The position numbers and the translations under genes are program-made. Positions 1 through 23,345 of a stretch of 38,250 bases of DNA are shown here, one piece after another. The first letter of the stretch is position 1. Each line of letters opens with the position of its first letter. The DNA comes from an uncultured Erysipelotrichales bacterium (GTDB lineage Bacteria; Bacillota_I; Bacilli_A; Erysipelotrichales; Coprobacillaceae), in NCBI GenBank assembly GCA_964369175.1, contig CAYJEM010000013.1:1-38250 (forward strand), read 5' to 3'. The notes beneath the pieces are model-generated. The model was not told where the DNA came from and searched no databases. It saw nothing but the letters and a program-made list of their open reading frames with translations.

Positions 1-53
1 TCACTTGCCTTTCACGCAAGCATTCACGGGTTCGAACCCCGTACGAGTCACCA
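1..53 (+). tRNA. 3' portion of tRNA-Glu (anticodon UUC), truncated by the window start; ends with CCA at 51-53
   Basis: Anticodon stem cttgc/gcaag around loop cTTTCac (anticodon TTC). T-arm acggg-TTCGAAC-cccgt. Acceptor 3' strand acgagtc, discriminator a, then CCA. Confidence 0.65.
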
Positions 54-6981: not shown

Positions 6982-9243
6982 ATGAAACAAACAATATTAA
7001 ATATTTTAGCGAATGATGACTTCTTGAAACGTACACCATCATCACTGGCAAAGGAATTAGGATATCAAACAAAAGAAGAATTTACATCATTTATGAAAGT
7101 ATTAAATCAGCTAGAAGAAGAGCTAGTAGTGATTCGTAATGATAAAGATGAGTATTATTTACCTACCCAAAAGAATATGGTTATAGGAATATTATCAATT
7201 AACAAAAAAGGGTTTGGATTTGTACGATTAGAAGATGAAAATTTAGAAGATATTTTTATATCAAAAGAATCTTTGAAAGGCGCATTTGATAAAGACACAG
7301 TATTAGCACAAATTGAAGAGCAACAAAAAGGAAATCGTAAAGAGGGAAAAATCCTTCGAGTAATCAAAAGAGGAAAAACAAGAATTGTTGGTGAGCTAAG
7401 ACAAGGAAATCGCGATTGTTATGTAGAGAGTACGGTTTTAGGATTAGATAAAAGAATATACATTGATAAAGGGCATTTGCACGGTGCAACAGTAGGACAT
7501 GTTGTTGCTGTTGAAATAAAAGTATACAAACCATTAGTAAAAGGAACAGTTGTTGACATTATTGGACATAAAAGTGATCCAGGTGTGGATATATTATCCG
7601 TAGTTAGTGATCATGGTGTAGATATTGCTTTCCCAAAAGAAGTTTATAAACAAATCGATTATATTCAAGATGAAGTATTAGAAGCAGATTTAGTAGGTAG
7701 ACTAGATTTACGTAAAGAAGTTATTGTAACGATAGACGGAGATGATGCTAAAGATTTAGATGATGCCATATCACTGACAATCAATGAAAATGGAAACTAT
7801 TATTTAGGAGTGCATATTGCTGATGTAAGTCACTATGTTAGTGAAGATTCACCGTTGGATAAAGAGGCAGTTGAAAGAGGAACGTCAATTTACTTAGTTG
7901 ACAGAGTGATTCCGATGTTACCTCACAAATTATCAAATGGAATTTGTTCATTAAATCCTCATGTTGACCGTTTAACAATGTCGTGTTTTATGGAGATTGA
8001 CAAAACTGGTGAAGTTATTGATTATAAAATAGATCAAAGTGTTATTCACTCAACTGAGAGAATGACATATAATAATGTAAATAAAATACTTGCTGGTGAC
8101 AAAGAAATGACAAAGCAGTATCAACATGTACAAGATTTATTCTTTTTAATGCAAGAACTTGCATCTATATTACAAAATAAAAGAGAGCAACGTGGTGCTA
8201 TCGACTTTGATGTAAAAGAAGCTAAAGTGTTGGTAAATAAAAAAGGAAAACCGACAGATGTTGTTTTAAGAGAACGAGGAATAAGTGATCGTATTATAGA
8301 ATCATTTATGTTACAAGCAAATGAAACGGTAGCAAAACATTTTTGCTTATTTGATAAACCATTTATTTATCGTGTTCATGAGCATCCAAAATTATCAAAA
8401 TTACAACAATTTACTGGTATTGCCAAAACAATGGGTTATGAAATCGAAGGTTCATTAGAAGATATCGAACCGATGCAATTACGTAAGCTTATTGAATCAA
8501 GTCGTGATAAAGAAGAACATGATGTTATTACAACACTGTTATTACGCTGCATGCAAAAAGCGGCATATGATGAAAACTGCTTGGGCCACTATGGTTTAGC
8601 TGATGAGTATTATACACATTTTACTTCACCAATTCGTCGTTATCCTGATTTACTTGTACATCGATTAATACGTACATATTTGGTACAAAATAAGCTTGAT
8701 AATGAGACGTTAAATCACTTTAATGAAGTAGTACCAATTCTTGCTAAAAAGTCTTCTGAAAGAGAAAGACTTGCAATAACTATTGAACGTGAAGTCGAAG
8801 ATATGAAAAAAGCTGAGTTTATGGAACAATATATCAATAAAGAATTTGATGGTATTATTAGTTCAGTTACTAGTTTTGGATTTTTTGTGGAATTAGAAAA
8901 TACAATTGAAGGTTTAGTCCATGTACTAGATTTATCTGATGATTTCTATTTCTATGATGAAAAGAAACTACAATTTATTGGTCAACGTACTGGTAAACAT
9001 TTTGGGCTTTCTGATAAAGTGCGTGTTCGCGTTAGTGGTGCTAGTAAAAAGGAACGTAATATTGATTTTGTAATTGTTGGTATGAAACCAAATAAAAGCC
9101 GTAGAAAAGTAGTAATTAAAACAGATAAGAAAGCAAATAATAGTTACCGTAATAAAAAAAATAAACATCAAAGAAATAATGATGGAAAAAGACAAGATAG
9201 AAGAAGTATAATTAAAAAAGGAAAACATTCTAGGAGGAAGTAA
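6982..9243 (+). CDS. rnr: Ribonuclease R (RNB family 3'-5' exoribonuclease)
   Basis: 753 aa with cold-shock/OB domain, RNB catalytic core, S1 domain and a lysine/arginine-rich C-terminal tail. The secG-rnr-smpB-ssrA order is the conserved one. Confidence 0.9.
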
Positions 9244-9245
9244 CA

Positions 9246-9692
9246 ATGAAAATTATTTCAAATAATAAAAAAGCATACCACGATTATTTTATTGAAGATA
9301 CTGTTGAAGCAGGAATTGTTTTACAAGGAACAGAAATAAAATCAGTTAGAAATGGAAATGTTAATTTGAAAGATAGTTTCATTAGAATAAAGAATGAAGA
9401 AGCATATTTAGAAAACATGCATATTTCACCTTATGAACAAGGGAATCGTTTCAATCATGACCCGTTGCGCAATCGTAAACTATTATTACATAAAAAAGAA
9501 ATCTTAAAGCTTCAACAAAGAGCAAAAGAAGATGGACTAGCAATTATACCAACAAAACTATATTTTGGTAATGGTAGTAAAGTGAAAGTGGAAGTAGCAC
9601 TTGCTAAAGGAAAAAAACTATACGATAAACGTCAAGATTTGAAAGAAAAAGACGCAAAAAGAGAAATTGAAAAAGCTATGAAAAATTACTAA
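9246..9692 (+). CDS. smpB: SsrA-binding protein SmpB
   Basis: 148 aa, sequence typical of SmpB. It lies immediately upstream of the tmRNA. Confidence 0.9.
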
Positions 9693-9734: not shown

Positions 9735-10081
9735 GGGGATGTCTTGGATTCGACAGGGGCAAGTCTGACCTTAGCTGCAGTCGTAGTCGTACGTTAAACG
9801 AAACAAAAAATAACTGGAAACAGAACAAACTATTCTTTCGCATAGTCGACATAGACTTGAAAGTGCCACTACTTATCGTGCCTATAAATAAGTAACTGGT
9901 ATTATACTCATAGGATAAGGGTTATTATTTCTTAGCTAATAATCTCGAAAAACTAATAAGATCGCTAGGTGTAAAATTGCTTATTGATTGTAGCCTAGTT
10001 AAATCTATTCAATAAGATAAACTGTAGACGCTTTGGAGGGACTGTTTTTGGACAGGGGTTCGATTCCCCTCATCTCCACCA
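9735..10081 (+). ncRNA. ssrA: tmRNA (SsrA); predicted tag reading frame GGA AAC AGA ACA AAC TAT TCT TTC GCA TAG at 9816-9845 gives (A)GNRTNYSFA
   Basis: 5' end GGGGAUGUCUUGGAUUCGACAGGGG. 3' end GGACAGGGGUUCGAUUCCCCUCAUCUCCACCA (T-arm plus acceptor plus CCA). The AAUAACUGG(A/C) box before the resume codon matches B. subtilis ssrA. It is located right after smpB. Confidence 0.85.
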
Positions 10082-12185: not shown

Positions 12186-13139
12186 ATGGATTTAAATCAG
12201 TTGTATCTAACAAATAACGAATGTTATCAAGTTGGAGCAAAGATGAAACCAATAGGCGTTATGTGGCATTCAACAGGAGCAAATAACCCAACATTAAAAA
12301 GATATGTTGGACCAGATGATGGAAAATTAGGTAATAATCGATATGGTAATCACTGGAATCAATTTCGTCCTGATGGTCGACAAGTATGTGTGCATGGATT
12401 TATTGGAAGGCTGGAAAATGGAAATATTGCAACATATCAAACTTTACCATTTGATATGAAAGGATGGCATGCTGGGGGATCTGCTAATAATAATTATGTT
12501 GGATTTGAAATATGTGAAGATGGATTAGATGATATTTATTATTTTAATGCAGTATATCAAGAAGCTGTTGAATTTAGTGCTTTTATATGCAAGCAACAAG
12601 GGCTAGATCCACTCGCTGGAAATACAATTATCTGTCATAGTGATGGATATAAATTAGGAATTGCATCAAATCATAGTGATGTATATCATTGGTTTAATCG
12701 ATATGGAAAAACCATGGATAATGTACGTTTAGATATAAAAAATGCAATGAATCCAAAACCACCATTCCAAGTACGTGGACATATTCAAAATGAGGGCTGG
12801 CAGTCATGGCAAACAAGCATGGTTGGTACTATTGGAAAATCACTTAGATTAGAAGCATTACAATTTGATACCGAGCTATCACTAGGTAGAATCTTATTAC
12901 ATTTACAAGATGTTGGCTGGGTTGATTATACAGATATTAATAAGGATACGATTATCGGAAGTGTGAATCAAAGTAGAAGAATCGAGTGTATTGAAATAAC
13001 TTGTCCAAATATGGAGTATCGTGTTCATCAAGAAGGTATTGGTTGGACATCATGGACAAAAGCAGATGGTATCTCATCACTTGGAAGTGTAGGACAAGGG
13101 TTACGTTTAGAAGCAATCGAATTTCGATTTACAGACTAG
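12186..13139 (+). CDS. N-acetylmuramoyl-L-alanine amidase (Amidase_2/CwlA-like) with two C-terminal ChW cell-wall-binding repeats
   Basis: GVMWHSTGANN, GWHAGG...YVGFEICEDG and ICHSDG resemble CwlA zinc-amidase motifs. The two ~50 aa repeats (VRGHIQNEGWQSWQT...GKSLRLEALQF and YRVHQEGIGWTSWT...GQGLRLEAIEF) fit the ChW consensus. Confidence 0.8.
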   Translation: MDLNQLYLTNNECYQVGAKMKPIGVMWHSTGANNPTLKRYVGPDDGKLGNNRYGNHWNQFRPDGRQVCVHGFIGRLENGNIATYQTLPFDMKGWHAGGSANNNYVGFEICEDGLDDIYYFNAVYQEAVEFSAFICKQQGLDPLAGNTIICHSDGYKLGIASNHSDVYHWFNRYGKTMDNVRLDIKNAMNPKPPFQVRGHIQNEGWQSWQTSMVGTIGKSLRLEALQFDTELSLGRILLHLQDVGWVDYTDINKDTIIGSVNQSRRIECIEITCPNMEYRVHQEGIGWTSWTKADGISSLGSVGQGLRLEAIEFRFTD

Positions 13140-13207: not shown

Positions 13208-13909
13208 ATGGCAGTAATGTATCCAATTATAAAGAAATATATAGTTGATGAAATAAAAAACGGTAATTATACAGAAGAATCAATGCTTCCTGCAGAACGT
13301 GAATTTACAGACAGATTTCAAGTATCAAGGATGACAGTTCGTCGTGCTTTTGATGAGCTTATTCAAGATGGAATACTTATAAGAAAAAGTGGAACAGGTG
13401 TGTTTGTAGCACCGCAAAAGCAAACCAAATCATATGACAAACTTTCATTTAAAAATGATACTGAATTAATTGAAAAATATGGAAAGATAACTACAAAAGT
13501 AATTTCCTTAAAACTTGTAACAAACCATCAATTAGTTAATAAGTATTTAGAATTAGAAAATGATGAAGAAGTATATCAACTAAAAAGAGTTCAATATGGA
13601 GGGAATATCCCATTAGTGTATGAGAATATATTTTTACCAAAGAAGTACTTTAAAAATATTTTTAAAGTTGACTGTACTCAATCCATGCAAGAAATTATTA
13701 AAGAAACATTATTAGAAAAGAAACCACAACACAATATAATAGAAGTTGAAGCATCTAGTGTTTCAAGGTTGCTAGGAGCAACCCTTCAACTACCACAAGG
13801 AGCTATTATCATGAAACTAACAAATATTGTTATGAGTGAAGGTAAAGCAATTTATTTTGGGGTTGATAGCATTGATGGTAATAGATTTAAATATATATCA
13901 AAGAACTAA
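13208..13909 (+). CDS. GntR/HutC-subfamily transcriptional regulator (winged HTH plus UTRA effector domain)
   Basis: The N-terminus (LPAEREFTDRFQVSRMTVRRAFDELIQDGIL) is a GntR HTH. The C-terminal ~150 aa are UTRA-like. RBS aggagga. Confidence 0.85.
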   Translation: MAVMYPIIKKYIVDEIKNGNYTEESMLPAEREFTDRFQVSRMTVRRAFDELIQDGILIRKSGTGVFVAPQKQTKSYDKLSFKNDTELIEKYGKITTKVISLKLVTNHQLVNKYLELENDEEVYQLKRVQYGGNIPLVYENIFLPKKYFKNIFKVDCTQSMQEIIKETLLEKKPQHNIIEVEASSVSRLLGATLQLPQGAIIMKLTNIVMSEGKAIYFGVDSIDGNRFKYISKN

Positions 13910-13912
13910 CAG

Positions 13913-13962
13913 CATTGTCTATACAATGTTGTTTTTATTATTGCATCATTGTCTAGACAATG
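13913..13962. promoter_or_regulatory. Two dre-like palindromes (CATTGTCTATACAATG, and a perfect 16-mer CATTGTCTAGACAATG) 34 bp apart, 30-80 bp upstream of the methyltransferase operon
   Basis: The GT-N-TA-N-AC core matches HutC/NagR/DasR-type operators (ATTGGTCTAGACCA). They lie between the GntR gene and the first methyltransferase gene. Confidence 0.55.
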
Positions 13963-13992: not shown

Positions 13993-15354
13993 ATGAATAA
14001 AAAAGATATATTGTTGAAGTTATTAAATAAGGAAAAAGTTGAAATAATTCCATGGGTTCCTTTTGTTGGAGTACATGGAGGATTGTTAATAGACGCAGAC
14101 GCAACAATGGTATTACAAGATGAAGAAAAGTTGTATCAATCAATTATTAAAGCAAATCAATTATATAAACCATATGGTCAACCAGTAATCTTTGATTTAC
14201 AAGTAGAAGCAGAGATTTTAGGATGTGATTTGCGTTGGGCAAAAGATTCTCCACCTTCAGTTGTAAGTCATCCATTAAGTGGCAGTGAAGATATCGTTAT
14301 TCCTTGTATATGTACATTACCAAAAAAGACGGATGGTCGTTTACCAATGATTTTACGTGTCATGGAAAGAGTAAAAAAAGATATTGGTGAGACTACCGCA
14401 TTATATGGTCTGATTTGTGGTCCGTTTACCTTAGCTGCGCATTTACGTGGTAATGATATTTTTATGGATATGTATGATGATGAAGAACAAGTTATTGCTT
14501 TTTTAGATTATTGCGCTGAAGTTGCAAAGCTTATGGCTACTTATTACATAGAAGCAGGAATGGATGTAATTGCAGTTGTTGATCCACTTATTTCACAAAT
14601 TTCTTTGGATCATTTTGAATATTTTATGGAAAAACCTTTTACTGAACTATTTATGCATATTACAAACCAAAACAGGAAATCATCATTCTTTGTATGCGGG
14701 GATGCTACTCGAAATATTGAAGGAATGTGCAAAACAAAACCAGACTCAATATCTGTAGATGAAAATGTAAATATTATTAAAGCAAAAAAAGTTACGGATA
14801 AATATAATATTGTAATTGGAGGGAATATTCCGCTAACAACAACAATGTTACATGGTAGTCAGCATGATAATATGAAATATGTTGTGGATTTACTTGATAA
14901 CATGGAAAACCGAGATAAATTCGTATTATCACCTGGATGTGATATGCCTTATGCAACACCAATAAACAATGTTATTGGTGTAAGTCAAGCAGTTCTGGAG
15001 TTAGATAAAACAAGAAAAATGTTAACTGATTATATAAGTGTAAATGATGAAATAGATATAGAATTTCCTAATTATCAATCACTAGAAAAACCGTTGATTG
15101 AAGTATTTACTCTAGATTCTGCAACTTGTGCAGCATGTACATATATGATGGCAGCAGCTATGAACGCTAAAGCGATATTTGGTGATGAGATAGATGTTGT
15201 CGAATATAAATATACATTAAAAGAAAATATTGCTAGGGTAAAGAAAATGGGGGTTACAAATTTACCATCAATTTATATAAATGGCAAAATTGCGTTTAAA
15301 TCCATTGTACCCTCTAGTGGAGAATTGAATAATAAAATTAAAGAAGTTATATAA
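13993..15354 (+). CDS. MtaA/CmuA-family (UroD superfamily) methylcobamide:acceptor methyltransferase fused to a C-terminal thioredoxin_3-like CxxC domain
   Basis: Residues 1-345 align motif-by-motif with MtaA (VEAEILGC...PSVVSHPL, GPFTLAAHLRGNDIFM, EAGMDVIAVVDP, LSPGCDMPY). The HxC zinc motif reads FVCGD. The last ~100 aa (IEVFTLDSATCAACTYM...NLPSIYINGKI...SSGEL) resemble small redox-active disulfide protein 2. Confidence 0.8.
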   Translation: MNKKDILLKLLNKEKVEIIPWVPFVGVHGGLLIDADATMVLQDEEKLYQSIIKANQLYKPYGQPVIFDLQVEAEILGCDLRWAKDSPPSVVSHPLSGSEDIVIPCICTLPKKTDGRLPMILRVMERVKKDIGETTALYGLICGPFTLAAHLRGNDIFMDMYDDEEQVIAFLDYCAEVAKLMATYYIEAGMDVIAVVDPLISQISLDHFEYFMEKPFTELFMHITNQNRKSSFFVCGDATRNIEGMCKTKPDSISVDENVNIIKAKKVTDKYNIVIGGNIPLTTTMLHGSQHDNMKYVVDLLDNMENRDKFVLSPGCDMPYATPINNVIGVSQAVLELDKTRKMLTDYISVNDEIDIEFPNYQSLEKPLIEVFTLDSATCAACTYMMAAAMNAKAIFGDEIDVVEYKYTLKENIARVKKMGVTNLPSIYINGKIAFKSIVPSSGELNNKIKEVI

Positions 15355-15364
15355 GGAGAATAAC

Positions 15365-15994
15365 ATGGAAAAATTAGAAGAAATAAGTGATCTATTACAA
15401 CGAGGACGTGCTAAGCAAATAAATGCTGTAATTCAAGAAGCATTAGATGAAGGTGTTGAAGCAGATACAATATTAAAGGACGCCTTGCTTGCAGGAATGT
15501 CAATCGTTGGTGAAAAATTCCGTAATGATGAAGTATTTGTACCAGAGGTACTAGTTGCAGCAAGGGCGATGAACCGAGGTGTTGAGTATTTAAAAGACTA
15601 TTTATCAGGTGATGGAAATCAAAGCGTTGGTAAAGTAGTAATTGGTACCGTCAAAGGAGATTTACATGATATTGGTAAAAATCTTGTAAAAATCATGTTA
15701 GAAGGAAAAGGAATTGAAGTCATCGACTTAGGTACCGACGTAGAGGCAAAAACTTTTGTCGAAAAAGCAATTGAAAATGATGTCGATATTATTTGTTGTA
15801 GTGCCTTACTTACAACTACAATGCCAGAAATGAAAAAAGTAGTTGAATTAGTTAAAGAAAATAATCTAGATGTAAAAGTTATGATTGGCGGAGCACCAGT
15901 AAATCAAGAGTTTTGTGATGAAATACAAGCTGATTATTATACAGATGATGCGGCAAGTGCAGCAAATGTTGCTAGTGAAATATTAGGAGGGTAG
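15365..15994 (+). CDS. Corrinoid (B12)-binding protein, MtaC/MtbC/MttC-like
   Basis: The N-terminal helical cap is followed by a Rossmann B12-binding domain with a DxHxxG motif (GDLHDIGKN) and a GG motif further downstream. Confidence 0.85.
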   Translation: MEKLEEISDLLQRGRAKQINAVIQEALDEGVEADTILKDALLAGMSIVGEKFRNDEVFVPEVLVAARAMNRGVEYLKDYLSGDGNQSVGKVVIGTVKGDLHDIGKNLVKIMLEGKGIEVIDLGTDVEAKTFVEKAIENDVDIICCSALLTTTMPEMKKVVELVKENNLDVKVMIGGAPVNQEFCDEIQADYYTDDAASAANVASEILGG

Positions 15995-15997
15995 ACA

Positions 15998-17095
15998 ATG
16001 TTAACAGACGCAAAGAAACAACAGTTGGTTATAGATAGTGAAAAATGGTGGGAACATACTTTAGAAAGACCGCTTATGCAAGTAACCCTAAGCAAAGATG
16101 TATATGGAGAGGATTCATATGGATTATCACGTGGTAGGCTGCTAGAGATATTGTACGACCCAACAGTAGCTCCAAGAGACGTTGCTAAGCTATATCGTAA
16201 AGATTTAGAAAACAAAGAATATTATGGTGATGCATTTCCAGTTTTCTATATGCGTTCTACTGGAATACTTGGAGCAATGCTTGGCCAAGGATTTAATATT
16301 GACATGGAACATGGTACTGTCTGGTTTGAAGAATTAGAGGGGAAAGAGTTAGAAGATATTCATCCGGTACTAGATTCAAATAATTGGTTGTATGTACGTG
16401 GAAAAGAATTGATAGAAGCATTTGAAAATGAATTTAAAGATGAAATTGGAATTGGTATACCTAATCTTGGTGGAATGATGGATATTGTTGAATCTATGCG
16501 TGGAGCAAATAATTCTTTAATGGATTTATATGATGATCCAGAAGAAGTAATACGCTTAAATGATGATATTTACGCTGCTTATAAAAAAGCATATGATGAA
16601 TACATAAAAAACATAAATAATGATAAAATTTTGGGATATAGTGGATGGATTACATTGCTATCTCAAAAACCATACTTTATTTCACAATGTGATTTTTGTT
16701 GTATGATAGGTCCAGCACAATTTGATGAATTTGTATATGATACATTAGAAAAAGAAGCAAATCTAATTGAACGCTCATTTTATCATTTAGATGGTCCAGG
16801 TGCTGTGAAACATTTAGATCGTATTATTGAAGCAGGATTCGATGGAATTCAATGGATAAACGGTGCTGGCTCTAAACCATTAGATGATCCAAGGTGGGAT
16901 GATATTTATAAAAAAGTACATAAAGCTGGAAAACTGCTACAAGTGTATATTTATAACCAGAATGAATTAAAATATATAGATCATATTGTAAACCTACTTG
17001 GTACAACAAAAGGATTAGCATTTATTTGCGTTGGTAAAAAAGAAGAAAAAATTGCGTACCTTGAATATTTAGAAAAATATAATGTACCACTATGA
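15998..17095 (+). CDS. Divergent UroD-superfamily methyltransferase, candidate substrate:corrinoid methyltransferase (MT I)
   Basis: 365 aa with weak but recognisable UroD/MtaA-like blocks (GGMMDIVESMRGANNSLMDLYDDPEEV, FYHLDGPG, EAGFDGIQW). Its stop overlaps the next start (ATGA). Confidence 0.55.
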   Translation: MLTDAKKQQLVIDSEKWWEHTLERPLMQVTLSKDVYGEDSYGLSRGRLLEILYDPTVAPRDVAKLYRKDLENKEYYGDAFPVFYMRSTGILGAMLGQGFNIDMEHGTVWFEELEGKELEDIHPVLDSNNWLYVRGKELIEAFENEFKDEIGIGIPNLGGMMDIVESMRGANNSLMDLYDDPEEVIRLNDDIYAAYKKAYDEYIKNINNDKILGYSGWITLLSQKPYFISQCDFCCMIGPAQFDEFVYDTLEKEANLIERSFYHLDGPGAVKHLDRIIEAGFDGIQWINGAGSKPLDDPRWDDIYKKVHKAGKLLQVYIYNQNELKYIDHIVNLLGTTKGLAFICVGKKEEKIAYLEYLEKYNVPL

Positions 17096-17970
17096 TAGAT
17101 GTACACGTTATTACAGGATTTTTAGGTGCTGGTAAAACCACAATTATTAAGTCATTGTTAAAGCAAATGAAAGATAAGAAAGTAAATCTAATAATTAACG
17201 AATTTGGAAAAGAAAGTATTGATGATATATTACTAGAAAAACAAGCTAATTACTTAGAAAGCATTCATAATGGTTCAGTATTTTGTGCTTGTAAATTAGA
17301 AGACTTACGTCGCGCAATGGATGTAAGTCTAAAAAGAAATCCTGATATGATTATTATTGAAACTTCAGGTTTGACAAATCCAGAAAGTGTATATCATCTC
17401 TTAAATAAACATAATTATCCTCGGGTAAATAATTGCTATGTGACAACGATTGTAGATGGTAAGAATTTTCATAAAGTATTTAAGAATGTTCTTGCAGTTG
17501 AAAAGCAATTGGAGGTAGCTGACAATGTAATTATTAATAAATGGGATAATCAATACACAATTATAGATGAAATTAGTGAAGTGAACCCAAATGCAAAAAT
17601 CATACATACAACAAATGGTATTGAAAATGTGGTGTTACCTATATCAAAAGTAAAAAATATAATACATTCACAGGTAGGTGTTAAAGATTTAACAAATAGT
17701 AAGTATCTACTACAAATAGATCAAAAAGTAAAAATGAGCGAACTGATATCTTTTGTCGAATCGATATCAAAACGATGTATGCGAATTAAAGGAATTATAT
17801 CAATAGAGAATAAAAATTATCTAGTTGAAGCAGTGATGGAAGAATACTCGATTAAGGAAATAGATGCTAAATCTACAGGATTAGTTATTTTAGGGAAAAA
17901 TACATTATTATCTAAAAAGCAAGTACAACATATCATATTAAATCAAAAAATAGATATCTGTATTGTATAG
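17092..17970 (+). CDS. COG0523/CobW-like G3E-family P-loop GTPase (putative metallochaperone)
   Basis: Walker A VITGFLGAGKTT, a metal-binding CxC variant (VFCACK), and switch regions ETSG and NKWD. Confidence 0.75.
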   Translation: MIDVHVITGFLGAGKTTIIKSLLKQMKDKKVNLIINEFGKESIDDILLEKQANYLESIHNGSVFCACKLEDLRRAMDVSLKRNPDMIIIETSGLTNPESVYHLLNKHNYPRVNNCYVTTIVDGKNFHKVFKNVLAVEKQLEVADNVIINKWDNQYTIIDEISEVNPNAKIIHTTNGIENVVLPISKVKNIIHSQVGVKDLTNSKYLLQIDQKVKMSELISFVESISKRCMRIKGIISIENKNYLVEAVMEEYSIKEIDAKSTGLVILGKNTLLSKKQVQHIILNQKIDICIV

Positions 17971-17981
17971 GAAGGAAATAT

Positions 17982-19403
17982 ATGAAAACATATCTAGATG
18001 TTATTCAAGAACAAGGTACATTTTTACAGGCAACTTGCAATGGAAACAAAACATGTGGACAATGCAAAATAATTATGGAAAAAGTAGTACCGATATATGA
18101 TCAAGAGAAAAGGTTTTTAAGTGATAAAGATATATCTAATAATATACGACTAGCATGTTTTCATGAATATGATAGCAATGTTACGTATCAACTTTTAAAA
18201 ACAAAGTTTGATATTCTAGATAGTCTTAAAGAGGAAAAAAGTAATAATAAAGAACATCATAATCATAAAACTTTGATTATAGATATTGGAACAACTACGA
18301 TTGTAATGAAGTGGGTAGCACTGAATTCAGGAAAAGTTTTAAAAACAAAGTCTTTTAGAAATCCTCAGATTACATACGGTAGTGATGTGGTTTCAAGAAT
18401 TCGTTATAGTATTAATAAGCCATTTGTGTTGCATGATATACTAATTGATAAAATCACGTGTCATCTCGAGGGTGAAACAGATTTTTCTACGATGGTAGTA
18501 TGTGGTAATACAGTGATGCTTAATTTGTTTTTAAATCAAGATATTACCACGTTAGGTGTTGTACCATTTATAATCCCAATTAAGGATATGCAAATAATTA
18601 CATCGCCATCTATTTTTAAGAATGTTAATAGAGAATTTACAGTCATTACCTTCCCGCATATTGATAGCTATGTTGGTGGTGATATTGTTGCCGGTATATA
18701 TGCAACAAATATTGATATGGAAAAGAATAATTGTATGTTAATTGATTTAGGTACAAATGGAGAAATAGTTGTTGGAAATAATAAGACTATCTATACAACA
18801 TCTACTGCAGCCGGCCCAGCTTTTGAGGGTGTTGGCATAAACTGTGGGTGTCCAAGTATTCAAGGTGCAGTAACTAAAGTTTCATATCAAAATGGTAAGG
18901 TGTACTACACAACGATTGGGAACCTTCCACCAATAGGAATATGTGGCAGTGGGCTCGTTAGTATAATAGCGATGGCTAAAAATAATGGGATAATTGATGA
19001 ATTAGGACGTTTTACTAGTAATCAAAAAGAGTTGTTTATAAGTAAAGATGTGTATATTAATCAGTGTGATATTCAAAAATTCATTCTAGCAAAGGCAGCA
19101 ATTCAAGCAGGGATAATGGTACTTTTAGAAAAAGTTGAAAGTGTTGAAAAAATATACATTGCAGGTGGATTGGGAACAAATATTGATATACAAGATTTAA
19201 TTGACTTAAAGATAATACCTAGTAAATATGTTGATTGTGTTGAAAGTGTTGGTAATAGTGCACTTCAAGGTATATATAGTTATTCCTTGAAACAAGACAA
19301 AGGTAGAATCGAAAATATTGTAAAGTTGTCTAAGAGTATTAACTTAGCTACTTTAGATAATTTTGATGATTATCTAATTGAAGGGTTATATATTGATGAT
19401 TAA
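17982..19403 (+). CDS. RACE/RACo-type ATP-dependent reductive activator of corrinoid proteins (N-terminal [2Fe-2S] ferredoxin-like domain plus ASKHA ATPase)
   Basis: The N-terminus has a Cys cluster (CNGNKTCGQCKI...C). The downstream domain has actin-like ATPase phosphate motifs (IDIGTTT, IDLGTNGE, AGGLGTN). Confidence 0.7.
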   Translation: MKTYLDVIQEQGTFLQATCNGNKTCGQCKIIMEKVVPIYDQEKRFLSDKDISNNIRLACFHEYDSNVTYQLLKTKFDILDSLKEEKSNNKEHHNHKTLIIDIGTTTIVMKWVALNSGKVLKTKSFRNPQITYGSDVVSRIRYSINKPFVLHDILIDKITCHLEGETDFSTMVVCGNTVMLNLFLNQDITTLGVVPFIIPIKDMQIITSPSIFKNVNREFTVITFPHIDSYVGGDIVAGIYATNIDMEKNNCMLIDLGTNGEIVVGNNKTIYTTSTAAGPAFEGVGINCGCPSIQGAVTKVSYQNGKVYYTTIGNLPPIGICGSGLVSIIAMAKNNGIIDELGRFTSNQKELFISKDVYINQCDIQKFILAKAAIQAGIMVLLEKVESVEKIYIAGGLGTNIDIQDLIDLKIIPSKYVDCVESVGNSALQGIYSYSLKQDKGRIENIVKLSKSINLATLDNFDDYLIEGLYIDD

Positions 19404-20031
19404 AGTAATATCGTGTGGTGTATTCAAACCGTATATTGAACATTTAGAAATAGATAAATCAATATATCAATTCGTATATCTAGACATACATCAACACAAT
19501 CAACCTAAGCAACTATCAAAAGAATTACAAAGAGAAATTAATAAACCAACTAATGCATCTAACATTATTCTTTTGTATGGGCTATGTGGGGGAGCGCTGC
19601 TTTCAATTACAACGAATAGCATACCTATAACAATTGTCCAAGTCCATGATTGTATGGCTATTCTACTTGGAAGTAAGAAAAAGTATTTTGAGTTAACAAA
19701 AACAAATAAGTCAATTCAATGGACAAGTTATAGCTTAAGACAAAGTAATTACATAAATAATAGTATTGATGAATGGTCAAATCAATATGATGAAGAAACT
19801 GTTGAATATTTAAAAGAGATGTTACTTTTTGAAAATCCTATCTATATCTACTTAGATATAGATAAAGAGAGTAATGTATTACAAGAGTATAGTAAAGTCA
19901 TTGTCGGAAGTAATCAATTTCTAAAAGATATATTATTATTACAAGCAAAAGACATTATTACATTATATCCACGTCATAAGCTAAAACAATCTCTTGATAA
20001 TAAAGTAGTAATTAGCCTACCAATAGAGTAA
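19396..20031 (+). CDS. Hypothetical protein, possibly DUF1638-like (a family often linked to corrinoid methyltransferase operons)
   Basis: Its start overlaps the RACE stop (ATGATTAA), suggesting translational coupling. An alternative TTG start lies at 19378. The family assignment is from memory and is low confidence. Confidence 0.5.
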   Translation: MIKVISCGVFKPYIEHLEIDKSIYQFVYLDIHQHNQPKQLSKELQREINKPTNASNIILLYGLCGGALLSITTNSIPITIVQVHDCMAILLGSKKKYFELTKTNKSIQWTSYSLRQSNYINNSIDEWSNQYDEETVEYLKEMLLFENPIYIYLDIDKESNVLQEYSKVIVGSNQFLKDILLLQAKDIITLYPRHKLKQSLDNKVVISLPIE

Positions 20032-20614: not shown

Positions 20615-21298
20615 ATGGCAAACATTTTAAAAAGATTCTCTGACATTATGTCAGCAAATATTAACGCATTACTAGATAAGGCTGAAGACCCGGAAAAAAT
20701 GATTGATGAATATATGAGAGATATTCAAGATGATTTACGTAAAGTAAAAGCAGAAACAGCTGCAGTAATGGCACACGAAAAGCAAGCAATGAGAAAGCTT
20801 AATGAAAATAAACAAGACGTTGAAAAATATCAAAAATATGCTGAAAAAGCATTAATTGCAGGTAATGAAAATGATGCAAAAGCTTTTCTTGCAAAAAAAC
20901 AAGAATTAACAAATAACCAAGCAGGATTACAACAAATTTATGATGCAGCTATGGCTAATGCAAAGCGCATGAAAGATATGCACGATAAATTAGAAAAAGA
21001 TATGTTGAGTTTAAATGAACGAAAACAACAAATTAAAGCAAAAATGTCAGTAGCTAAGGCACAAGAAAAAATAAATAAAATGACTTCAAATACAACAAGT
21101 GGTGCAGATTCTATGGCAGCATTTAATCGCATGGAAGAAAAAGCAAATCGCTTATTAGATGAAGCAGATGCAATGGCAGAACTAAATACAAAAGAAGATT
21201 CAGTTGAAGATTTAACTGCAAAATATGATACTCCAGAAACAAGTGACCCAGCAGTAGACGATGAACTAGCAGCAATGAAAGCAAAGTTAGGATTATAA
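20615..21298 (+). CDS. pspA: PspA/IM30 family protein (phage-shock protein A / LiaH-like)
   Basis: 227 aa coiled-coil. The N-terminus MANILKRFSDIMSANINALLDKAEDPEKMIDEYMRD is typical of PspA. RBS aaggaga. Confidence 0.85.
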   Translation: MANILKRFSDIMSANINALLDKAEDPEKMIDEYMRDIQDDLRKVKAETAAVMAHEKQAMRKLNENKQDVEKYQKYAEKALIAGNENDAKAFLAKKQELTNNQAGLQQIYDAAMANAKRMKDMHDKLEKDMLSLNERKQQIKAKMSVAKAQEKINKMTSNTTSGADSMAAFNRMEEKANRLLDEADAMAELNTKEDSVEDLTAKYDTPETSDPAVDDELAAMKAKLGL

Positions 21299-21299
21299 A

Positions 21300-22355
21300 A
21301 TGACAACCGCATATAAATGTGAAAACTGTGGTGACACAATGTTATTTGATCCTAAAAGTGGAACTTTAAAATGTCCTGCTTGTGATAGCGAAATAACAAT
21401 TGAACATGATGCAAGTAAAGTTGTTGAACATACATTAACATTAGATGCAAAGCGATCAATTAAAGCAACTGAAAAAGAAACCCATACAATGGAATGTACA
21501 GGGTGTGGGGCCAAAATAGAAGTTGATGGTAATTCTACGGCAACTGAATGTCCGTATTGTGGTTCTAAGTTCGTACTTGCTAAAAAACAAGAAGATGCTC
21601 TAATTCCTGATGGATTAGTATCATTTAAAATTGATAGAAATGATGCTAAAAGATTGTTTGGTGAATGGATAAGTAATCGTTTTTGGGCACCTGGTGAATT
21701 AAAAGGGCTGCACCAAAAAGGAAAGATATTAGGTATTTATTTACCGTATTGGACATTTGATGCTGATGCATATACAAAGTATACTGCTAAAGGTGGAATA
21801 AATCGCACGGAAACATACGAAGATGATGAAGGGAATACACATACAAGTACAAAAACTGACTGGTATCCTACAAGGGGTCAAGTATCTAAGTTTATTGATG
21901 ATGAACTGGTGCCGGCAACTGCCGATGTAAGTGCCAATATCTTATCAAAACTTGATACTTTCGATACAACATCGGTAGTATCGTATGCTCCAGAATATTT
22001 GTCTGGTTATAATGCACAGTGTTATTCGATAAATTTAGATGATGCACATGTAGTTGCTAGAGGTAAAATGGATGAACAATTACGCCAATTAGTACGACAA
22101 GATGTACTGCGTAAATATGATGAAGTTGCAGATATTCGTATTGCTCCAGTCTATAGTGATGAAACATATAAGCATATTATGTTACCAATCTACAGTGCTG
22201 CATACCACTATAAGGACAAGGTGTACAATTTACTTATTAATGGACAAACTGGAGAAATTGAAGGTGAATATCCATTAAGTATTATTAAGATTGCAATTGC
22301 AGTTATATTAGCTATTATTTTATGTGCAGTTGCGTATTTTGTTTTTTACAAATAG
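21300..22355 (+). CDS. PspA-associated zinc-ribbon protein with C-terminal TM anchor (B. subtilis YdjG-like)
   Basis: Four CxxC pairs form two zinc ribbons (CENCGD...CPACD and CTGCGA...CPYCGS). There is a C-terminal hydrophobic helix. The start is coupled 1 nt after the pspA stop. Confidence 0.7.
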   Translation: MTTAYKCENCGDTMLFDPKSGTLKCPACDSEITIEHDASKVVEHTLTLDAKRSIKATEKETHTMECTGCGAKIEVDGNSTATECPYCGSKFVLAKKQEDALIPDGLVSFKIDRNDAKRLFGEWISNRFWAPGELKGLHQKGKILGIYLPYWTFDADAYTKYTAKGGINRTETYEDDEGNTHTSTKTDWYPTRGQVSKFIDDELVPATADVSANILSKLDTFDTTSVVSYAPEYLSGYNAQCYSINLDDAHVVARGKMDEQLRQLVRQDVLRKYDEVADIRIAPVYSDETYKHIMLPIYSAAYHYKDKVYNLLINGQTGEIEGEYPLSIIKIAIAVILAIILCAVAYFVFYK

Positions 22356-22370
22356 GATGGAGGTTATAGA

Positions 22371-23345
22371 ATGGGATTATTTTCAAATCAATTAGCTAAT
22401 GTAATTGAATGGAATGAGTTTTACGATGAAATGCTTTTTTGGAAGTGGAGCAATAAAGAAATAAAAAAGGGTAGTAAATTAATTATTCGTCCTGGACAAG
22501 ACGCAATATTTCTATACAATGGAGTTGTTGAAGGCGTTTTTGAAGATGAAGGAAGTTATGAGGTAGATACTCAAATTATTCCTTTTTTATCAACACTAAA
22601 AGGATTTAAATTTGGATTTAATAGTGGGTTACGTGCTGAAGTACTATTTATAAATACAAAAGAAGTATTAGTTAAATGGGGAACAAAGAGTCCAGTTTTA
22701 ATCCCAACACCAACACTACCTGGGGGAATGCCAATTCGTGCATTTGGAACATTCTCTTGTAAGATAGCAGATCATGATGTTTTAATTGAAAAAATTGCTG
22801 GTGTTAAACAACAATACACTGTAAATGATGTAAAGGATCGTATAGTATCTGTTTTAGATCAATTACTTATGAAGTGGATAGCAAAAGAAGGTAAGGATAT
22901 GTTTAACTTACAAATTAATGCTTCAGAAATAGCCAAAGGAATTCAAGAAGACTTAGACTACGAATTACTGTCAATAGGTATCTCGATTACTTCATTTGCT
23001 ATTTCGAACTTTAATTATCCTGAAAATATTCAAAAAATGGCTGAAGAAGTAGCAGCTCAAAGTATGATTGGGGATGTTAATCGTTATCAACAGGTAAATA
23101 TGGCCAATGCAGTTGGTAATGGATCAGGTGCTGGTGAAATGGCAGGACAAATGGCAGGAATGGCTATGGGTATGGCAATGGGGCAACAAATGGTCAACCA
23201 AATGAGTAATCAACAACAACCAATGCAACAACAACCAATGCAACAAGCAGATGTGCCTCAAGGCGTCTTAAAGTTTTGCCCAGAGTGTGGAACTAAAGCC
23301 ACTGGAAGTAAGTTTTGTGGAAATTGTGGATTTAAGCTAATGTAA
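22371..23345 (+). CDS. SPFH/band-7-like protein of the YdjI family (COG4260) with a Q/M-rich linker and C-terminal zinc ribbon
   Basis: The N-terminus (MGLFSNQLANVIEWNEF...IIRPGQDAIFLYNG) matches YdjI. A low-complexity segment MAGQMAGMAMGMAMGQQMVNQ...QQQPMQQQPMQQ precedes CPECG...CGNCG. Confidence 0.8.
   Translation: MGLFSNQLANVIEWNEFYDEMLFWKWSNKEIKKGSKLIIRPGQDAIFLYNGVVEGVFEDEGSYEVDTQIIPFLSTLKGFKFGFNSGLRAEVLFINTKEVLVKWGTKSPVLIPTPTLPGGMPIRAFGTFSCKIADHDVLIEKIAGVKQQYTVNDVKDRIVSVLDQLLMKWIAKEGKDMFNLQINASEIAKGIQEDLDYELLSIGISITSFAISNFNYPENIQKMAEEVAAQSMIGDVNRYQQVNMANAVGNGSGAGEMAGQMAGMAMGMAMGQQMVNQMSNQQQPMQQQPMQQADVPQGVLKFCPECGTKATGSKFCGNCGFKLM

Follow-up and report, generated by a model that had tools for sequence, protein, structure and literature searches.

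Methylcobamide:coenzyme M methyltransferases of Methanosarcina, MtaA and MtbA (PDB 4ay7), are URO-D-type TIM barrels with a His-x-Cys...Cys zinc ligand set. Bacterial MtaA homologs are described as the MtaA-like proteins Mlp1-3 of type 1 mlp gene clusters (Kountz and Balskus preprint, PMC10418091). These clusters encode a corrinoid protein and a RACE/RACo activase but no folate methyltransferase, and they are defined by at least an Mlp2 and an Mlp3 with more than 25% identity to a coenzyme M methyltransferase and a His-Cys-Cys site. S/Se methyl transfer has been proposed for them, and His-Cys-Cys sites mark S/Se-methyltransferases in this superfamily (PMC10418091). G3E GTPases of COG0523 subfamily 13, which are presumed to deliver metal, co-localise with the Zn-dependent mtaA and mtaB (Haas et al. 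2009, PMC2770081). For bacterial trimethylamine and dimethylamine systems the second methyltransferase is explicitly stated to be unknown (PMC8318568).

Here we analysed a 38,250 nt stretch of contig CAYJEM010000013.1 (GCA_964369175.1) from an uncultured Erysipelotrichales bacterium, referred to as the window. It contains a gene for an MtaA-like barrel fused to a small thioredoxin-like CxxC domain. The family is present in at least several hundred species, including the human gut genera Blautia, Eisenbergiella, Faecalicatena and Mediterraneibacter, and has no functional annotation. We found no description of the fusion in the searchable literature.

Architecture and conservation of the fused gene

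The fused gene is a single open reading frame with an AGGAGG ribosome-binding site 7 nt upstream of the ATG (Table 1). The initial annotation had read it as an MtaA-family methyltransferase joined to a thioredoxin_3-like CxxC domain and with the His of the zinc motif replaced by Phe. Both the domain parse and the altered motif are borne out by our analysis. Nevertheless, the protein is not a member of MtaA proper. Although the barrel is closely superposable on MtaA, it scored only 125 bits against a cut-off of 235 (TIGR01463), 123 against 400 (MtaA_Meth) and 118 against 600 (MtbA), and the His ligand is missing. The replacement of His by Phe is also not specific to the fusion, since the closest unfused relatives carry it too. 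More distant relatives (under about 32% identity) nearly all show LHICG, and so do two closer relatives, P0130 and P0134.

The C-terminal domain was likened in the initial annotation to the small redox-active disulfide protein 2, but it scores higher against redox_disulf_1 (MJ0307 family, 30 bits) than against redox_disulf_2 (23 bits). A profile built from 12 sequences of this domain hit the small archaeal thioredoxins 1nho (5.8e-9), 1fo5 (6.4e-6) and 1ilo/MTH895 (1.8e-4). In these alignments CAAC falls on CPYC/CPHC and Pro425 on the structurally conserved Pro. The domain has the minimal fold and length of the MJ0307/Mt0807/MTH895-type thioredoxins (Thioredoxin_3), with the CxxC and the Pro loop in the same positions, but it is fused to an enzyme rather than free-standing and has CAAC, CAPC or CPAC instead of CPYC or CPHC.

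Table 1. Features of the fused gene and its neighbours in the window
Feature	Position	Strand	Basis
GntR/UTRA (HutC-type) regulator	13208..13909	+	Pfam GntR and UTRA; same position in locus L001, which carries an ortholog of the fused gene
Two palindromes, ATTGTCTATACAAT (13914-13927) and ATTGTCTAGACAAT (13948-13961), between the GntR gene and the fused gene; likely GntR/HutC operators	13914..13961	.
Fused gene (453 aa plus stop): MtaA-like URO-D barrel joined to a thioredoxin-like CxxC domain	13993..15354	+	ORF; Pfam URO-D and Thioredoxin_3; AF2 pLDDT 91.9, pTM 0.89
URO-D/MtaA-like TIM-barrel domain (aa 3-334)	13999..14994	+
F233-V-C235, position of the H-x-C zinc-ligand motif, His replaced by Phe and Cys kept	14689..14697	+	Pairwise alignment to 4ay7; F233, C235 and G236 invariant in 64 fused sequences and in 7 unfused relatives; codons checked
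D256-E257, invariant carboxylates aligning with VEE of MtaA; possible additional metal ligand (inferred)	14758..14763	+	Invariant columns; alignment to 4ay7
C316 (in PGCDMP), second barrel Cys ligand, retained	14938..14940	+	Alignment to 4ay7; fused sequences and unfused relatives; codons checked
Thioredoxin-like domain (aa 366-453), predicted beta-alpha-beta-alpha-beta-beta-alpha topology over aa 368-452	15088..15351	+	Pfam PF13192, 26.3 bits; TIGR00411, 30 bits; profile versus 1nho; DSSP of the AF2 model
C379-A-A-C382 (CxxC) at the N-terminus of helix 1; invariant across the family as CAAC, CAPC, CPAC or CSAC	15127..15138	+	Family alignments; codons checked
P425, invariant Pro aligned with the conserved (cis-)Pro loop of thioredoxins	15265..15267	+	Family alignments; profile alignment
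Corrinoid (B12-binding) protein with the DxHxxG motif (DLHDIG)	15365..15994	+	Pfam B12-binding_2 and B12-binding; TIGR02370, 192 bits
365-aa protein with a predicted URO-D/MtaA-type barrel; H263-x-D265 and H272 invariant, no conserved Cys; probable substrate-specific first methyltransferase of this operon (inferred)	15998..17095	+	No Pfam or NCBIfam hit; AF2 pLDDT 94; Foldseek 4ay8, E=1.8e-8
CobW/COG0523-like GTPase with Walker A GAGKT; metal motif C65-A-C67-K (17284-17292), not CxCC	17092..17970	+	Pfam cobW, 3e-32
RACo-type reductive activator of corrinoid proteins (2Fe-2S ferredoxin, RACo middle and ASKHA domains)	17982..19403	+	Pfam
DUF1638 protein; this family co-occurs with RamA-like activases	19378..20031	+	Pfam; PMC5764234

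We considered whether the fusion could be the product of a frameshift or of an assembly error. The fusion was intact in about 158 of 160 loci examined, across Bacillota, Spirochaetota and Bacteroidota. It is one open reading frame in all 80 species-representative loci kept and in 77 of 80 metagenome loci, with F-x-C-G, PGCD and CxxC conserved. Of the other three metagenome loci, one (L102) has an in-frame TGA within the SQIS motif, one (L106) has a garbled 3' end, and one (L088) carries the unfused relative P0129, which sits on a 2.4-kb contig and is followed by a homocysteine-methyltransferase-like gene. The fusion is therefore not an artefact. Selenocysteine variants were looked for at the Cys positions among the interrupted reading frames, and none were found. 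A divergent fused paralog, P0161, has lost all four Cys together.

Gene neighbourhood

In the window the gene for the corrinoid protein starts 10 nt downstream of the fused gene, and RACo and DUF1638 are encoded in the same tight operon. Over the 160 loci, many of which lie on short contigs, we counted a CobW-like GTPase in 130, a corrinoid protein in 72, RACo in 47 and any MT1-like gene in 45. The operon does not conform to a type 1 mlp gene cluster, as it contains only one MtaA-like gene, which lacks the His. The second barrel protein has no detectable sequence similarity to MtaA (hhalign probability 10%) and no Cys ligands, and only the predicted fold identified it. No thioredoxin fusion or CobW partner is mentioned for the mlp clusters.

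The GTPase partner is likewise unusual. COG0523 proteins are all stated to carry CxCC (PMC2770081), but about 85% of the partners found here have CxC followed by R, K, I or L, and only about 15% have CxCC. Moreover, the pairing is near-obligatory and is with one specific fused enzyme.

The methyltransferase neighbours vary: pyrrolysine-type MttB and MtbB, non-Pyl MttB, URO-D-type enzymes, or the 365-aa barrel of the window. Three loci (L093, L117 and L118) carry MttB with an in-frame TAG (Pfam MTTB, 336 bits), and L093 also carries MtbB with an in-frame TAG (Dimeth_Pyl, 585 bits); these genes sit directly beside the fused gene and a corrinoid protein. In a further locus (L173) the order is TRAP transporter, corrinoid protein, MTTB and fused gene. 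No pterin-binding-like family was recognised among the 24 commonest neighbour families, only some of which were scanned against Pfam while the rest were judged by eye.

In Bacteroidota the context is different. Here the neighbours are the homocysteine, B12-binding and reactivation modules of the cobalamin-dependent methionine synthase MetH, and three genomes have a split MetH-like cluster of corrinoid protein, fused gene, PF02574, CobW and PF02965. The pterin-binding module is absent and the fused protein stands in its place.

Possible role of the fused enzyme

From these observations we suggest that the protein is a corrinoid-dependent methyltransferase of the MtaA/MtbA type which acts as the common second (MT2-type) methyltransferase of a widespread bacterial methyl-transfer system and may handle the second step of methyl-group use from methylamines, betaines and methoxy compounds. 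In this reading a substrate-specific first methyltransferase, in the window the 365-aa protein, would methylate the Co(I) corrinoid protein encoded next door. The fused enzyme would then move the methyl group from CH3-Co(III) to an acceptor, reversibly, whereas RACo and DUF1638 would return oxidised Co(II) to Co(I). The acceptor would be activated at a cysteine-rich metal site (Cys235, Cys316, perhaps Glu257) that has lost the usual His ligand. The CxxC domain and the almost always adjacent GTPase would form a module that assembles, completes or maintains this site, the CxxC taking or sharing the metal handed over by the CxC motif of the GTPase. Given the all-thiolate chemistry, the acceptor would most likely be a soft S or Se nucleophile (a thiol, sulfide or selenide), and the family would then link methylamine and methoxy catabolism to volatile sulfur or selenium production. 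The known link of COG0523 subfamily 13 to mtaA and mtaB and the joint loss of the four Cys in P0161 are in line with such a metal-site module, and the lowest-confidence blocks of the AF2 model are those holding the barrel F-x-C motif and the CxxC, plus the linker between the domains. As no metal, acceptor or activity has been measured and the distance of the CxxC from Cys235 and Cys316 is not known, this reading is tentative and we put its probability at roughly 45%. About half of the loci show no first methyltransferase within reach, though many contigs are short. In addition, bacteria of these groups are not known to make coenzyme M, so no obvious thiol acceptor is at hand.

We considered two alternatives for the CxxC domain. 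First, with the same methyltransferase role, the domain could be a redox device rather than a ligand donor: it could re-reduce a disulfide formed between the two barrel cysteines after oxidation and metal loss, as happens in other Zn-thiolate methyltransferases, with the GTPase re-inserting the metal, or it could act as a redox switch. The thioredoxin active-site architecture is fully kept and the closest relatives are genuine small archaeal thioredoxins. The F-x-C...C site of the unfused relatives shows that the barrel site can exist without a fused CxxC, which suits an accessory rather than an integral role. Oxidised, zinc-free forms of related enzymes are also among the PDB hits, namely 1xr2 (oxidised MetE) and 5dml (oxidised MmuM). 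On the other hand, no thioredoxin reductase or other reductant is encoded in the conserved neighbourhood, and the residues between the Cys are small (A, P, S) rather than the usual GP, PY or PH. We regard this alternative as less likely than the reading above. Second, a cysteine of the CxxC could itself be the methyl acceptor, as the initial annotation had proposed besides a zinc-site substitute and a redox switch. This would give a stoichiometric, Ada-like self-methylation, for example as a sensor or to discharge a dead-end methyl-corrinoid, and the four invariant thiolates may resemble the Cys4 zinc site of Ada. However, a suicide acceptor does not fit an operon built for catalytic turnover, with an ATP-dependent activase, a corrinoid protein and substrate-specific methyltransferases, and no demethylating partner is apparent. 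This possibility is very unlikely. Among the three options of the initial annotation the present data do not decide.

The Bacteroidota context fits a methyl-donor-side role or a tetrahydrofolate substrate at least as well as our reading. The enzyme could be a methyl-tetrahydrofolate:corrinoid methyltransferase, that is, a non-orthologous replacement of the pterin-binding module (MtgA, MeTr or the MetH folate domain). One reversible activity would explain every context, both the clusters with MttB, MtbB or URO-D-type MT1 in which no pterin-binding gene was recognised and the missing module of the split MetH-like cluster. MetE, in the same superfamily, binds methyl-folate, and Kountz and Balskus raise the same possibility for MtaA-like proteins. 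Methyl-folate activation, however, needs no thiolate metal site, and this reading leaves the four invariant Cys and the dedicated metallochaperone-like GTPase unexplained; folate use also appears not to have been shown for any URO-D-family corrinoid methyltransferase. We consider it unlikely.

Alternatively, the enzyme could be a first-step (MT1-type) demethylase of a methyl thioether or methyl selenide, like MtsA, MtpA or the Mlp2 proteins, loading the corrinoid protein from compounds such as methanethiol, DMS or methylselenol. MtaA-like Mlp proteins are proposed to act in this way, many loci show no other methyltransferase, and the homocysteine methyltransferase found in Bacteroidota and next to P0129 is an acceptor-side enzyme. 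Yet the gene sits beside bona fide MT1 enzymes (Pyl-MttB, MtbB, MTTB) with a single corrinoid protein, and in those clusters a second MT1 would leave the system without an outlet. This role is doubtful, although it partly merges with our main reading because thiol methyl transfer is reversible.

A more speculative possibility, improbable but compatible with the data, is that the two barrel cysteines and the CxxC form one inter-domain all-cysteine metal (or metalloid-binding) centre, loaded by a dedicated CxC-type G3E GTPase, and that the enzyme moves methyl groups between cobalamin and an acceptor that is neither tetrahydrofolate nor coenzyme M, for example sulfide, methanethiol or selenide. 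It would then be both the missing second methyltransferase of bacterial pyrrolysine-dependent methylamine systems and the unknown enzyme behind sulfide-dependent methyl disposal (methanethiol and DMS formation) by anaerobes. An arsenic or mercury link was considered, as DUF2284 is fused to arsenite methyltransferases in the literature and an ArsC-like phosphatase and an aquaporin each appear next to the gene in one locus; these are single cases and do not recur among the frequent neighbours, so the link is kept only in this connection. Homologs of the 365-aa protein occur in Parasporobacterium MAGs, but there they lie in sugar or inositol-type clusters without a corrinoid protein and give no support to a link with sulfide methylation.

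With respect to regulation, no cobalamin riboswitch was found upstream in the window or in four related loci, and the only one found, in locus L002, lies before cbiMNQ. For the palindromes upstream of the fused gene, 4 matches were found against 0.31 expected by chance, and the same ATTGTCTAGACAAT lies upstream of the ortholog in L001.

The fused gene and its operon

The fused gene encodes 453 aa behind a strong AGGAGG ribosome-binding site and opens a tight six-gene operon with gaps of -26 to +11 nt between the genes. A GntR/HutC regulator lies upstream, and the 83-nt gap between the regulator gene and the operon contains two near-identical 14-bp palindromes, ATTGTCTA[T/G]ACAAT. There are 4 matches against 0.31 expected by chance, and one copy is conserved upstream of the ortholog in a related genome (locus L001). 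The palindromes look like the operators of the regulator, and the terminator-like hairpin called at 13908-13933 is one of them. The closest relative (79% identity, same seven genes) comes from an uncultured Erysipelotrichales genome.

Positions of the features discussed in the text (L and a number denote loci from related genomes or metagenomes)
Locus	Position	Feature
window	1-50	3' tRNA fragment, cut by the window start
window	6982-9692	RNase R and SmpB-sized ORFs
window	9735-10081	complete tmRNA gene (147 bits)
window	12186-13139	N-acetylmuramoyl-L-alanine amidase with three ChW (clostridial hydrophobic W) repeats
window	13208-13909	GntR/HutC regulator
window	13914-13927	palindrome, likely operator
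window	13948-13961	palindrome, likely operator
window	13993-15354 (+)	fused gene
window	15365-15994	corrinoid protein with a DxHxxG motif
window	15998-17095	365-aa protein with no family hit
window	17092-17970	CobW-like GTPase
window	17284-17292	metal motif of the CobW-like GTPase
window	17982-19403	RACo-type reductive activase
window	19378-20031	DUF1638 protein
window	20615-23345	PspA/IM30 gene, zinc-ribbon protein, SPFH/Band-7 protein with a C-terminal zinc ribbon
L001	7958-7971	palindrome upstream of the ortholog
L002	8988-9971 and 12338-12874	BioB/HydE-like radical SAM protein (327 aa) and DUF2284 'metal-binding' protein
L006	9137-14195	conserved Bacteroidota cluster
L171	6159-11201	conserved Bacteroidota cluster
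L172	6152-11234	conserved Bacteroidota cluster
L093	8122-9597 and 9599-11002	trimethylamine and dimethylamine methyltransferase genes with in-frame TAG
L117	4177-5652	trimethylamine methyltransferase gene with in-frame TAG
L118	3457-4944 (- strand)	trimethylamine methyltransferase gene with in-frame TAG

Using Pfam we found URO-D over aa 3-334 (2e-44) and Thioredoxin_3 over aa 376-449 (26.3 bits, cut-off 24.8). A phmmer search against the PDB identified M. mazei MtaA (4ay7, 1.7e-19); in this alignment Phe233 is placed on the His of LHICG, Cys235 on its Cys, and SPGCDMP on APGCGIA. Residues 368-452 are predicted to have a beta-alpha-beta-alpha-beta-beta-alpha topology with the CxxC at the start of helix 1. 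A profile of this domain hits the small archaeal thioredoxins 1nho (5.8e-9), 1fo5 (6.4e-6), and 1ilo (1.8e-4), with the CxxC and Pro425 in register. So everything described in the initial annotation, an MtaA-like methyltransferase with an altered zinc motif and a fused thioredoxin-like CxxC domain, is there.

Occurrence of the fusion and the altered zinc motif

The fusion is real and widespread. The 120 best hits in a collection of 5.8 billion proteins are 445-458 aa long, and all but one are 453-458 aa. A profile of distant members found 539-aa forms in Prolixibacteraceae and other Bacteroidota, and 458-aa forms in Sphaerochaetaceae; the Bacteroidota forms carry a second thioredoxin_3 domain that lacks the CxxC. 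A scan of one genome per species yielded at least 592 relatives, and all of the best 80 are fused. They include Lachnospiraceae, Oscillospiraceae, Erysipelotrichales, Treponema and other Spirochaetales, Coriobacteriales, Halanaerobiales, and Tissierellales. A metagenome scan gave 79 fused loci out of 80. In an alignment of 64 sequences spanning 37-79% identity, the invariant residues include F233, C235, G236, D256, E257, P314-G-C316-D, D375, S376, C379, A380, C382, Y384, M385, and P425. The names attached to these proteins by the sources are only 'uroporphyrinogen decarboxylase family protein' or 'thioredoxin family protein'.

Phe in place of His is not tied to the fusion, since the closest unfused relatives (32-43% identity) are also F-x-C...C. 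The canonical LHICG appears in two closer relatives (P0130 at 43% and P0134 at 41% identity) and in nearly all relatives below about 32% identity. One divergent fused paralog found in the representative search (P0161, 455 aa, 27% identity) keeps both domains but has lost the two barrel Cys and both CxxC Cys together (LLATTGN, TGRDIP, ELGSVENQ). This suggests that the four cysteines work together, but it is a single case, and P0161 may be a non-catalytic derivative. His-Cys-Cys has been described as marking the S/Se-methyltransferases of this superfamily, and carboxylate or non-ligand substitutions as marking O-demethylases (PMC10418091). An enzyme that keeps both Cys, drops the His, and gains a CxxC fits neither pattern.

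Gene neighbourhoods and the possible role of the fused protein

We next examined which genes accompany the fused gene in 160 loci, many of which are on short contigs.

Neighbours of the fused gene
Neighbour	Loci (of 160)
CobW-like GTPase	130
Corrinoid protein	72
PocR-AraC regulator	55
RACo	47
URO-D-type paralogs with HxD or HxC	26
DUF2284	25
BioB-like radical SAM protein	22
PadR	15
MttB	11
MtbB	5

In the species-representative set the GTPase is directly downstream in at least 60 of the 76 loci that have room for it. About 85% of these GTPases have CxC followed by R, K, I, or L, and only about 15% have CxCC, the motif that Haas et al. (PMC2770081) describe as universal in COG0523. The same paper had already noted a COG0523 subfamily next to the Zn-dependent mtaA and mtaB genes. 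The BioB/HydE-like radical SAM protein and the DUF2284 protein recur in the same clusters, and DUF5714 and a Cys-rich PadR regulator recur less often. DUF2284 is reported fused to arsenite methyltransferases (PMC13188914).

In the loci L093, L117, and L118 the MttB gene has a single in-frame TAG at codon 324 or 325, inside NVGGT*GDSK, which is the known pyrrolysine position. In L093 an MtbB gene also has an in-frame TAG, at codon 352. Pfam gives MTTB 336 bits and Dimeth_Pyl 585 bits. These are pyrrolysine-type methylamine methyltransferases lying directly beside the fused gene and a corrinoid protein, in contigs that look bacterial given their PocR-AraC regulator and CobW. This is the position held by MtbA in methanogens. 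In a Sphaerochaetaceae contig the order is TRAP transporter, corrinoid protein, MTTB, fused gene. None of the 24 most frequent neighbour families looked like a pterin-binding methyltransferase, although only some of them were scanned against Pfam and the rest were judged by eye.

The constant unit is the fused enzyme plus the GTPase, whereas the corrinoid protein and the activase are frequent and the other methyltransferase is variable. In known systems the variable enzyme is the substrate-specific first methyltransferase, and the constant one delivers the methyl group to the cellular acceptor. We therefore tentatively read the fused protein as the shared second methyltransferase, a bacterial counterpart of MtbA/MtaA. 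The invariant thiolates and the metallochaperone-like partner argue for a metal-thiolate site and a soft acceptor (a thiol, sulfide, or selenide). On this view the CxxC domain and the GTPase assemble, complete, or maintain that site; the CxxC, which may or may not touch the barrel site, could be either a ligand donor or a redox-active dithiol.

A different context was found in three Bacteroidota genomes. Here the conserved cluster consists of an AraC gene followed by genes for a corrinoid protein, the fused protein (539 aa), a homocysteine S-methyltransferase (PF02574), CobW, and the MetH reactivation domain (PF02965). The cluster is preceded by a TonB-dependent receptor and followed by a 2-hydroxyacid dehydrogenase. 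It looks like a split methionine synthase without a pterin module, with the fused protein where the folate module would be. The acceptor could instead be tetrahydrofolate. Such a reading would explain all the contexts with one reversible activity, but it leaves the cysteines and the GTPase unexplained. The Bacteroidota context also allows a donor-side role with methyl thioethers.

The protein would work like MtaA/MtbA, but it does not reach the curated score cut-offs for this family and lacks the His ligand. It is related in concept to the MtaA-like proteins of type 1 mlp clusters, but it does not meet their definition, and the paper describing them (PMC10418091) mentions neither a thioredoxin fusion nor CobW. 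We found no description of the fusion in the literature searched. The family is of interest because it is large, unannotated, and common in gut anaerobes and has an unusual active-site make-up.

The 365-aa protein and other genes of the window

The 365-aa protein encoded in the operon has no Pfam, NCBIfam, or PDB sequence hit. Its model (pLDDT 94) is predicted with high confidence to be a URO-D/MtaA-type barrel (Foldseek 4ay8, 1.8e-8). H263-x-D265 and H272 are invariant and there is no conserved Cys, a pattern that resembles O-demethylase-type first methyltransferases. The family is small (156 hits, all named 'hypothetical'), and outside this operon type its members sit in sugar or inositol-type clusters (AP_endonuc_2, GFO/IDH/MocA, ROK; or PTS plus GH1) without a corrinoid protein. 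We infer that the protein is the substrate-specific component of this operon.

Just downstream of the operon the PspA/IM30, zinc-ribbon, and SPFH/Band-7 genes look like a membrane-stress module, which is absent after the operon in L001, where a ClpB-like gene follows instead. The amidase gene lies directly upstream of the regulator; in L001 this place is taken by an Opp-type ABC transporter. Further upstream in the window, the tmRNA gene follows the RNase R and SmpB-sized ORFs.
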